Below, one piece after another: positions 20,921 through 21,166 of a stretch of 64,000 nucleotides of DNA. The position numbers were made by a program, and so were the translations under genes. Location of the stretch: NCBI RefSeq assembly GCF_003334785.1, contig NZ_QOWV01000004.1; one strand, given 5' to 3'. The notes beneath the pieces were generated by a model that was not told the DNA's origin, searched no databases, and was given only the letters and a program-made list of their open reading frames with translations. This DNA is from Escherichia coli. Lineage in GTDB: Bacteria; Pseudomonadota; Gammaproteobacteria; Enterobacterales; Enterobacteriaceae. Each line of letters opens with the position of its first letter. Positions within the stretch are counted from its first letter, which is position 1.

Positions 20921-20976
20921 TGTAATATCCTTTCTCTTTCTTAGACAGTACCTTACGGCACTGGTGTTAATACCCG

Positions 20977-21150
20977 ATCTTCTGCGCATCCTCGCGACTA
21001 ATGACAACCCTAACCCAGCTCTATGTGGGTAAAGCCTCTCATTAGCCGCGCGAACCTCTGCAACGGAAGATCATTCATAGCAACAATACATTAGTTTCCA
21101 GTGAATTGCTGCCGTCAGCTTGAAAAAAGGGGCCACTCAGGCCCCCTTTT
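20977..21150 (+). ncRNA. sraG: sRNA SraG, antisense to pnp leader (boundaries approximate)
   Basis: Known sRNA in the rpsO-pnp intergenic region on the opposite strand; coordinates placed from memory relative to pnp start; 3' end coincides with the bidirectional hairpin at 21123-21152. Confidence 0.4.
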
Positions 21151-21152
21151 CT
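21123..21152 (-). terminator. rpsO intrinsic terminator (bidirectional hairpin)
   Basis: aaaaaaggggccactcaggcccccttttct: GC stem flanked by A-run and T-run, 15 bp downstream of rpsO stop. Confidence 0.7.
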
Positions 21153-21166
21153 GAAACTCGCAAGAA

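Follow-up and report, generated by a model that had tools for sequence, protein, structure and literature searches.

The rpsO-pnp spacer of Escherichia coli: the pnp leader hairpin, the antisense RNA SraG and a terminator shared by both strands

The small RNA SraG of E. coli K-12 (RF00082, gene b4449) was described by Argaman et al. (2001) and Fontaine et al. (2016, PMC5029454). Northern blots and circular RT-PCR (cRT-PCR) with polyphosphatase show that the primary transcript is 216 nt long; no cRT-PCR clone at all came from the formerly annotated start, and the true start is 42 nt upstream of it (PMC5029454). Full-length SraG abolishes the 30S toe-print and lowers the level of pnp mRNA, whereas the form that is 42 nt shorter does neither, and the pairing with pnp mRNA comes close to the Shine-Dalgarno sequence without covering it (PMC5029454). 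A SraG promoter mutant has approximately 1.3-fold more pnp mRNA and PNPase, which is a small effect, and the level of SraG responds to temperature and to the stringent response (PMC5029454). Microarray analysis, target prediction and Northern blots of ten candidates revealed no trans targets in E. coli (PMC5029454).

The second closely related system is the autoregulatory leader of pnp (Portier, Regnier, Hajnsdorf; Carzaniga et al. 2009, 2015; Park et al. 2015, as cited in PMC5029454). Transcription from promoter P1 gives an rpsO mRNA that ends at the Rho-independent terminator T1, together with a read-through rpsO-pnp mRNA, and a monocistronic pnp mRNA arises from promoter P2, which is situated downstream of T1 (PMC5029454). 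RNase III cuts the leader stem loop at sites RIII1 and RIII2, which are 39 and 77 nt from the P2 start in vivo as well as in vitro, and this cutting leads to a repression that depends on PNPase, RNase E and CsrA (PMC5029454). SraG itself is a substrate of RNase III, with cuts at the mirror positions, and in the SraG-pnp duplex new sites are cut (PMC5029454). The legend to Figure 1 of Fontaine et al. (2016, PMC5029454) presents T1 and T, the sraG terminator, as one bidirectional terminator; most of 76 SraG cRT-PCR clones end there, and some have 3′ ends past it, i.e., read-through.

Two broader groups are also comparable. GadY/gadX-gadW and other cis-antisense RNAs cut by RNase III share with SraG the perfect pairing with the overlapped mRNA and the new cut sites, but differ in that SraG and pnp each carry an intramolecular RNase III hairpin of their own and in that the 5′ end of SraG acts beside the ribosome-binding site. 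The bidirectional terminators of convergent units likewise consist of a GC-rich hairpin with an A-run and a T-run, here common to rpsO and sraG. The terminator described here is, however, asymmetric, with a perfect run of six U on the rpsO side and four U interrupted by C on the SraG side, and the same asymmetry is found across the Enterobacterales among the matches listed.

The DNA considered here lies in a 64,000-nt stretch of E. coli sequence, termed the window. Positions 20850-21250 of the window align with E. coli K-12 MG1655 (NC_000913.3) with 100% identity over 401 of 401 columns, and an 801-nt query (20700-21500) is matched in 5426 of 5426 complete E. coli genomes, at 99% identity or more in 5409. 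A window coordinate equals the NC_000913.3 coordinate minus 3,290,248. The rpsO stop codon occupies 21167-21169, and 20921-21166 is therefore the exact 246-nt rpsO-pnp spacer, with pnp and rpsO both on the minus strand. The locus is thus that of K-12 SraG: the DNA is 100% identical, the strand and the terminator are the same, and the Rfam match is full-length. Hairpin R, the long imperfect hairpin of the pnp leader, is identical to that of the published autoregulatory leader, lies downstream of T1, is the site of the two staggered cuts and is followed by the UUG-initiated pnp gene; no difference was found. The region is almost certainly the rpsO-pnp intergenic control region of E. coli K-12, working as published, and none of the results speaks against the published account. 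Transcription, cleavage, termination and the regulatory effect are taken from the literature, mainly PMC5029454 and the papers cited there; the MG1655 identity, the coordinates, the folds, the Rfam match and the cross-species conservation were established in the present analysis. The biology of the spacer is already known, the UUG start, the RNase III-cut leader, SraG and the two-way terminator all being documented, and the region is a textbook case of post-transcriptional control of a major exoribonuclease. The coordinates of the features are in Table 1.

Table 1. Features of the rpsO-pnp spacer and of its surroundings, in window coordinates.
Feature	Position	Strand	Basis or remark
pnp	18785..20920	-	RefSeq (record 3309033..3311168)
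pnp UUG start codon	20918..20920, first base 20920	-	sequence, RefSeq, literature toe-print
Probable SraG -10 box, TAATAT	20923..20928	+	between pnp start codon and Shine-Dalgarno
pnp Shine-Dalgarno, AAAGGA	20928..20933	-	7 nt upstream of UUG
SraG primary transcript (ncRNA sraG), 216 nt	20935..21150	+	RefSeq (record 3311183..3311398, via 100% identical alignment); cRT-PCR and Northern in Fontaine 2016
Small second pnp leader hairpin, CAGUGCC-GUAA-GGUACUG	20946..20963	-	MFE fold
Hairpin R, long imperfect hairpin of the pnp leader, RNase III substrate, ~100 nt	20975..21073	-	fold, covariation
Part of SraG matched by RF00082	20979..21150	+	essentially the older 174-nt annotation 'SraG-S' (5′ end 20977)
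Probable pnp P2 -10 box, TAATGT	21088..21093	-	sequence; implies start near 21081
Bidirectional intrinsic terminator: rpsO T1 (-), SraG terminator (+)	21123..21152	both	sequence, folds, literature
rpsO stop codon, TAA	21167..21169	-	upper edge of spacer
rpsO	21167..21436	-	RefSeq (record 3311415..3311684); ORF encodes S15
S15 (rpsO) autoregulatory leader	21380-21494	-	Rfam RF00114, 117.6 bits
rpsO P1 promoter-like site, TTGCGA-17-TAGAAT	21573->21545	-	consensus promoter scan
naRNA4, between rbfA and infB	23007-23077	-	Rfam, above gathering score
rimP leader	27776-27876	-	Rfam, above gathering score
tRNA	27968-28041	-	Rfam, above gathering score
tRNA	31827-31910	-	Rfam, above gathering score
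greA leader	38563-38684	-	Rfam, above gathering score
ArcZ	60329-60436	+	Rfam, above gathering score

A preliminary description of the locus had pnp begin with TTG at 20920. The codon read from 20920 to 20918 on the minus strand is indeed TTG, and the RefSeq end of pnp (3311168) corresponds to 20920. Initiation at UUG, as also proposed there, agrees with the RefSeq annotation and with the 30S toe-print that Fontaine et al. (2016, PMC5029454) describe at a distance of 15 nt from the UUG. The UUG is in frame at the conserved N-terminus and has a Shine-Dalgarno sequence at the proper spacing. Among the matches listed in the cross-species sample (see below), the pnp start in Enterobacterales is TTG in 113 of the 117 scorable loci and GTG in 3, and TCCTT, the Shine-Dalgarno sequence in plus-strand letters, is conserved in the alignment. 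A mechanical list of open reading frames extends the pnp frame by 29 codons (20921-21007, minus strand) to an in-frame TTG at 21007. This TTG was rejected as the pnp start: it is situated inside the RNase III hairpin, the added segment is not conserved as protein and shows indels among relatives, and both the annotation and the toe-print place the start at 20920. The extension is an artefact of ORF calling.

The Rfam SraG model RF00082 matches positions 20979-21150 of the plus strand with 164.3 bits (gathering score 50, E 5.4e-30), the match covering model positions 1-177 of 177. The placement of SraG opposite to pnp in the preliminary description is borne out by this match above the gathering score and by the RefSeq ncRNA sraG, and the covariance-model search proposed there as a check for SraG gives the full-length RF00082 match at 164.3 bits. 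The 5′ end is a different matter. The plus-strand start near 20977 given in that description is outdated: it corresponds to the end given by Argaman et al. (2001) for the 174-nt form, while the mapped start is 20935, i.e., 42 nt away (20935 + 42 = 20977) and 2 nt from the pnp Shine-Dalgarno sequence. Thus the Rfam model and the earlier description put the 5′ end at 20977-20979, but the mapped primary transcript begins at 20935. The correction from 20977 to 20935 matters for the mechanism because only full-length SraG lowers pnp mRNA and removes the 30S toe-print, the additional 42 nt being the part that blocks 30S binding. Annotation pipelines based on Rfam will under-call the SraG 5′ end by 42-44 nt, and this is exactly the part that is functionally essential.

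The SraG -10 box is probably TAATAT at 20923-20928, the last base of which is 7 nt before the mapped start; the exact hexamer is assigned by its position. That position fits the published -10 mutation, which is near the pnp Shine-Dalgarno sequence without overlapping it and which abolishes the 216-nt RNA (PMC5029454). No hexamer at 16-18 nt spacing has more than 2 of 6 matches to TTGACA, and no -35 box was assigned to SraG. A residual SraG signal in the -10 mutant may derive from a longer transcript, for which a start 339 nt upstream of the SraG promoter has been predicted (PMC5029454). In the window, this predicted plus-strand start is at approximately 20596, within the pnp coding region.

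A consensus promoter scan finds the rpsO P1 site only, and neither the SraG promoter nor P2. Both are missed because neither has 9 of 12 consensus matches, and the assignments of the SraG promoter and of P2 therefore rest on the literature and on arguments of spacing. For P2, with a start at 21078-21081 the cuts at +39 and +77 would face each other on the two arms of hairpin R, offset by the stagger usual for RNase III. RIII1 and RIII2 would be located roughly at window positions 21042 and 21004 for a P2 start near 21081.

The 186-nt pnp leader has a fold of -66.2 kcal/mol (z -4.18), and none of 200 shuffled sequences is as stable; like the Rfam SraG match, this is well outside what chance would give. 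The existence of an RNase III-processed pnp leader, part of the preliminary description, is thus supported by the stable leader hairpin found here and by the RIII1 and RIII2 cuts documented in the literature. The SraG fold consists of the mirror hairpin plus the terminator (z -3.59), the mirror hairpin being weaker than the pnp-sense hairpin. No Rfam 15 match to a pnp-leader family is present at E <= 1 in 20700-21600. The matches at this threshold in the same interval are SraG, the S15 leader and two that are sub-threshold: an echo of SraG on the reverse strand, with 20.5 bits, and a match to the terminator by a Mesorhizobium sRNA model that is unrelated, with 15 bits. The last two were treated as non-significant.

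A small second hairpin is located between the RNase III hairpin and the Shine-Dalgarno sequence. A hairpin of differing sequence occupies the same place in relatives, with a mean z of -2.16 over 106 spacers and z < -1.5 in 77 of these 106, among the matches listed. This second hairpin (20946-20963) may be the upstream CsrA site of the literature. In E. coli E69 it shows several changes that apparently preserve the pairing.

The cross-species sample comes from one scan of species-representative genomes, with a search pattern made of the two arms of the hairpin R core. At least 120 loci were obtained, and those listed are all from Enterobacterales, with the exception of one Bdellovibrio locus that is a chance match to the pattern and was excluded. 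The hairpin core is invariant by construction of the search pattern, and the sample covers species that have this core. RNAalifold yields 24 consensus pairs in hairpin R from 116 sequences among the matches listed; in these, 98.0% of 2783 cells are canonical pairs in the pnp sense, and double changes are found at 7 pairs (61 cells). None of 500 shuffles reaches any of these measures, and slid controls pair at 28-55%. Ten of the 24 pairs are in the part fixed by the pattern and 12 of 24 never vary among the matches listed; the informative covariation therefore comes from the outer and apical parts of the hairpin. As judged from this alignment, hairpin R is maintained by compensatory change. What the comparison adds to the published pnp leader is the presence in its stem of many conserved G·U pairs that are available to the mRNA strand alone.

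The terminator hairpin given in the preliminary description, aaaaaaggggccactcaggcccccttttct, is found exactly at 21123-21152, and its proposed use by both strands, based on the flanking A-run and T-run, is upheld by folds in both directions and by the identity of T1 with the SraG terminator in Fontaine et al. (2016). The stem is formed by GGGGCC (21129-21134) with GGCCCC (21140-21145), i.e., six base pairs that are all G-C, with ACTCA as the loop. The minus-strand fold has -22.8 kcal/mol (z -3.24), and its stem runs directly into UUUUUU; the plus-strand fold has -16.3 kcal/mol (z -2.56) and the tail C-UUUU-C-U, with 5 T in an 8-base window. A U-run is thus present 3′ of the stem on both strands, the plus side being weaker. 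Of the two strands, only the plus strand is listed for this site by a consensus terminator scan. We read the minus-strand miss as a stem extension tolerant of G-T pairs that absorbs the six U. The notion that rpsO T1 fails the terminator rule was rejected, as the minus-strand fold is a hairpin followed by UUUUUU.

Among the matches listed, 107 of 109 complete spacers have the core GGGGCC-N3-9-GGCCCC. On the rpsO T1 side, five or six of the six pnp-side bases are A in every spacer listed, giving a strong U-run, and on the SraG side two to six of the seven rpsO-side bases are T, giving a variable one. Many of the species listed have a perfect palindrome, AAAAA-GGGGCC...GGCCCC-TTTTT, with five U on the SraG side. 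E. coli E69 has GGCCCC-TTTT instead of GGCCCCC-TTTT, and the missing C results in a perfect 10-bp palindromic terminator.

SraG could be mainly a by-product and not a selected regulator, a reading we consider rather unlikely. The conservation of the 'SraG' family would then have its source in the opposite strand, in the hairpin of the pnp leader and the terminator of rpsO, the antisense transcript would arise only where the AU-rich stretch from the Shine-Dalgarno sequence to the start codon resembles a -10 box, and SraG would stop at T1 since T1 happens to be palindromic. A comparison of the two strands is consistent with this. Over 116 sequences among the matches listed, the hairpin averages -47.9 kcal/mol when folded in the pnp sense and -30.7 kcal/mol in the SraG sense, and the pnp sense is the more stable in 115 of the 116 (Wilcoxon p 9e-21). 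On the same 24 pairs, canonical cells amount to 98.0% in the pnp sense against 80.0% in the SraG sense, and G·U cells that occur on one strand only number 510 for pnp and 8 for SraG (394 and 8 outside the pattern-fixed pairs), among the matches listed. The pattern of the G·U pairs suggests that the conserved hairpin is selected on the pnp mRNA strand, the SraG hairpin being a weaker mirror. The promoter points the same way: at the position of the E. coli SraG -10 box, TAnnnT is found in only 45 of the 109 spacers and TAATAT in 35 of the 109 among the matches listed, the box being absent in Klebsiella oxytoca (TTCTAT), Enterobacter cloacae (TTCTGT), Raoultella and others. So do the U-run on the SraG side (2-6 of 7, against always 5-6 of 6 on the rpsO side, among the matches listed), the shift in PNPase of only 1.3-fold in the promoter mutant and the absence of trans targets among those sought in E. 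coli. However, detection of SraG is reproducible, and temperature and the stringent response both affect its level; full-length SraG specifically blocks 30S binding and destabilizes pnp mRNA; and an older autoregulation mutation maps to the SraG -10 box. The effect of the SraG promoter mutation also counts against a by-product in E. coli. The box is kept in Salmonella, Citrobacter, Yersinia, Serratia, Photorhabdus and Proteus among the matches listed, TAATAT thus persisting in genera as distant as Salmonella, Yersinia, Serratia, Photorhabdus and Proteus, and species without the box could use another promoter. Selection would probably maintain the U-run for rpsO, with a weaker terminator tail for SraG and a SraG promoter that does not appear to be universal in Enterobacterales. 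A structure selected on the mRNA strand, together with a promoter present in fewer than half of the Enterobacterales listed, leads to a more limited proposal, which we lean against without setting it aside: the 'SraG family' may be an evolutionary shadow cast by the pnp leader and by the rpsO terminator, and SraG itself a lineage-restricted, opportunistic RNA that borrows a pre-existing palindromic terminator. If so, Rfam SraG matches in Klebsiella and Enterobacter would not stand for an RNA that is expressed with the 5′ end seen in E. coli. More generally, caution is warranted, as a covariance-model match to an antisense sRNA family can stem entirely from selection for structure in the sense-strand mRNA.

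Two further readings concern the terminator and the mode of action of SraG. The hairpin at 21123-21152 might effectively work one way, for rpsO, with the SraG ends at 21150 produced by exonucleolytic trimming and the plus-strand T-run existing only to pair with the A-run and lengthen the stem. The interrupted plus-strand tail, with its extra C between stem and U-run, the weaker plus-strand hairpin (-16.3 against -22.8 kcal/mol), the SraG clones that read through the terminator and the varying count of downstream T across the species listed are all compatible with this, but of the 76 cRT-PCR clones the majority have their 3′ ends at the terminator, which their authors call bidirectional, the plus-strand site is rated as terminator-like, having 5 T in 8, by the independent consensus scan, and many of the species listed have the perfect palindrome with five U on the SraG side. 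One-way action is very improbable. It is also very improbable that SraG is chiefly a trans-acting, Hfq-binding small RNA whose overlap with pnp is incidental. Purified Hfq binds SraG with sub-nanomolar affinity, SraG co-immunoprecipitates with Hfq, and SraG of Yersinia pseudotuberculosis represses the YPK_1206-1205 operon; however, deletion of hfq in E. coli alters neither the SraG level nor its effect on pnp, and the microarray, the target prediction and the Northern blots of ten candidates gave no trans target in E. coli.

With the published cis control of pnp as the preferred reading, the features in Table 1 may be combined as follows. Transcripts of rpsO initiated at P1 would either stop at T1 (read from 21152 to 21123, then UUUUUU) or continue into pnp, and P2, just downstream of T1 with a start near 21081, would be a second source of pnp mRNA. 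Both pnp mRNAs would carry the imperfect hairpin of approximately 100 nt (21073 to 20975), both arms of which would be cut by RNase III, and after this cut PNPase, RNase E and CsrA would shut down the UUG-initiated pnp message. On the plus strand, a weak promoter with its -10 box between the pnp start codon and the Shine-Dalgarno sequence would give the 216-nt SraG from 20935, fully complementary to the pnp leader and ending at 21150 in a short U-run on the far side of T1. By pairing beside the Shine-Dalgarno sequence, the 5′ end of SraG would block 30S binding and create new RNase III sites, and PNPase output would probably be lowered by approximately 1.3-fold.

The length of the spacer and of its parts varies among relatives. 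In Pantoea, Erwinia, Tatumella, Rosenbergiella and their relatives the spacers are approximately 300 nt long, compared with approximately 245 nt, and the extra ~65 nt of the Pantoea/Erwinia group are situated between the terminator and the rpsO stop codon (82-88 nt versus 19-23 nt elsewhere, among the matches listed). In Serratia marcescens and Candidatus Symbiopectobacterium the apical loop of the RNase III hairpin is longer by ~17 nt; the S. marcescens locus also has an insertion of approximately 65 nt between the pnp Shine-Dalgarno sequence and the hairpin.
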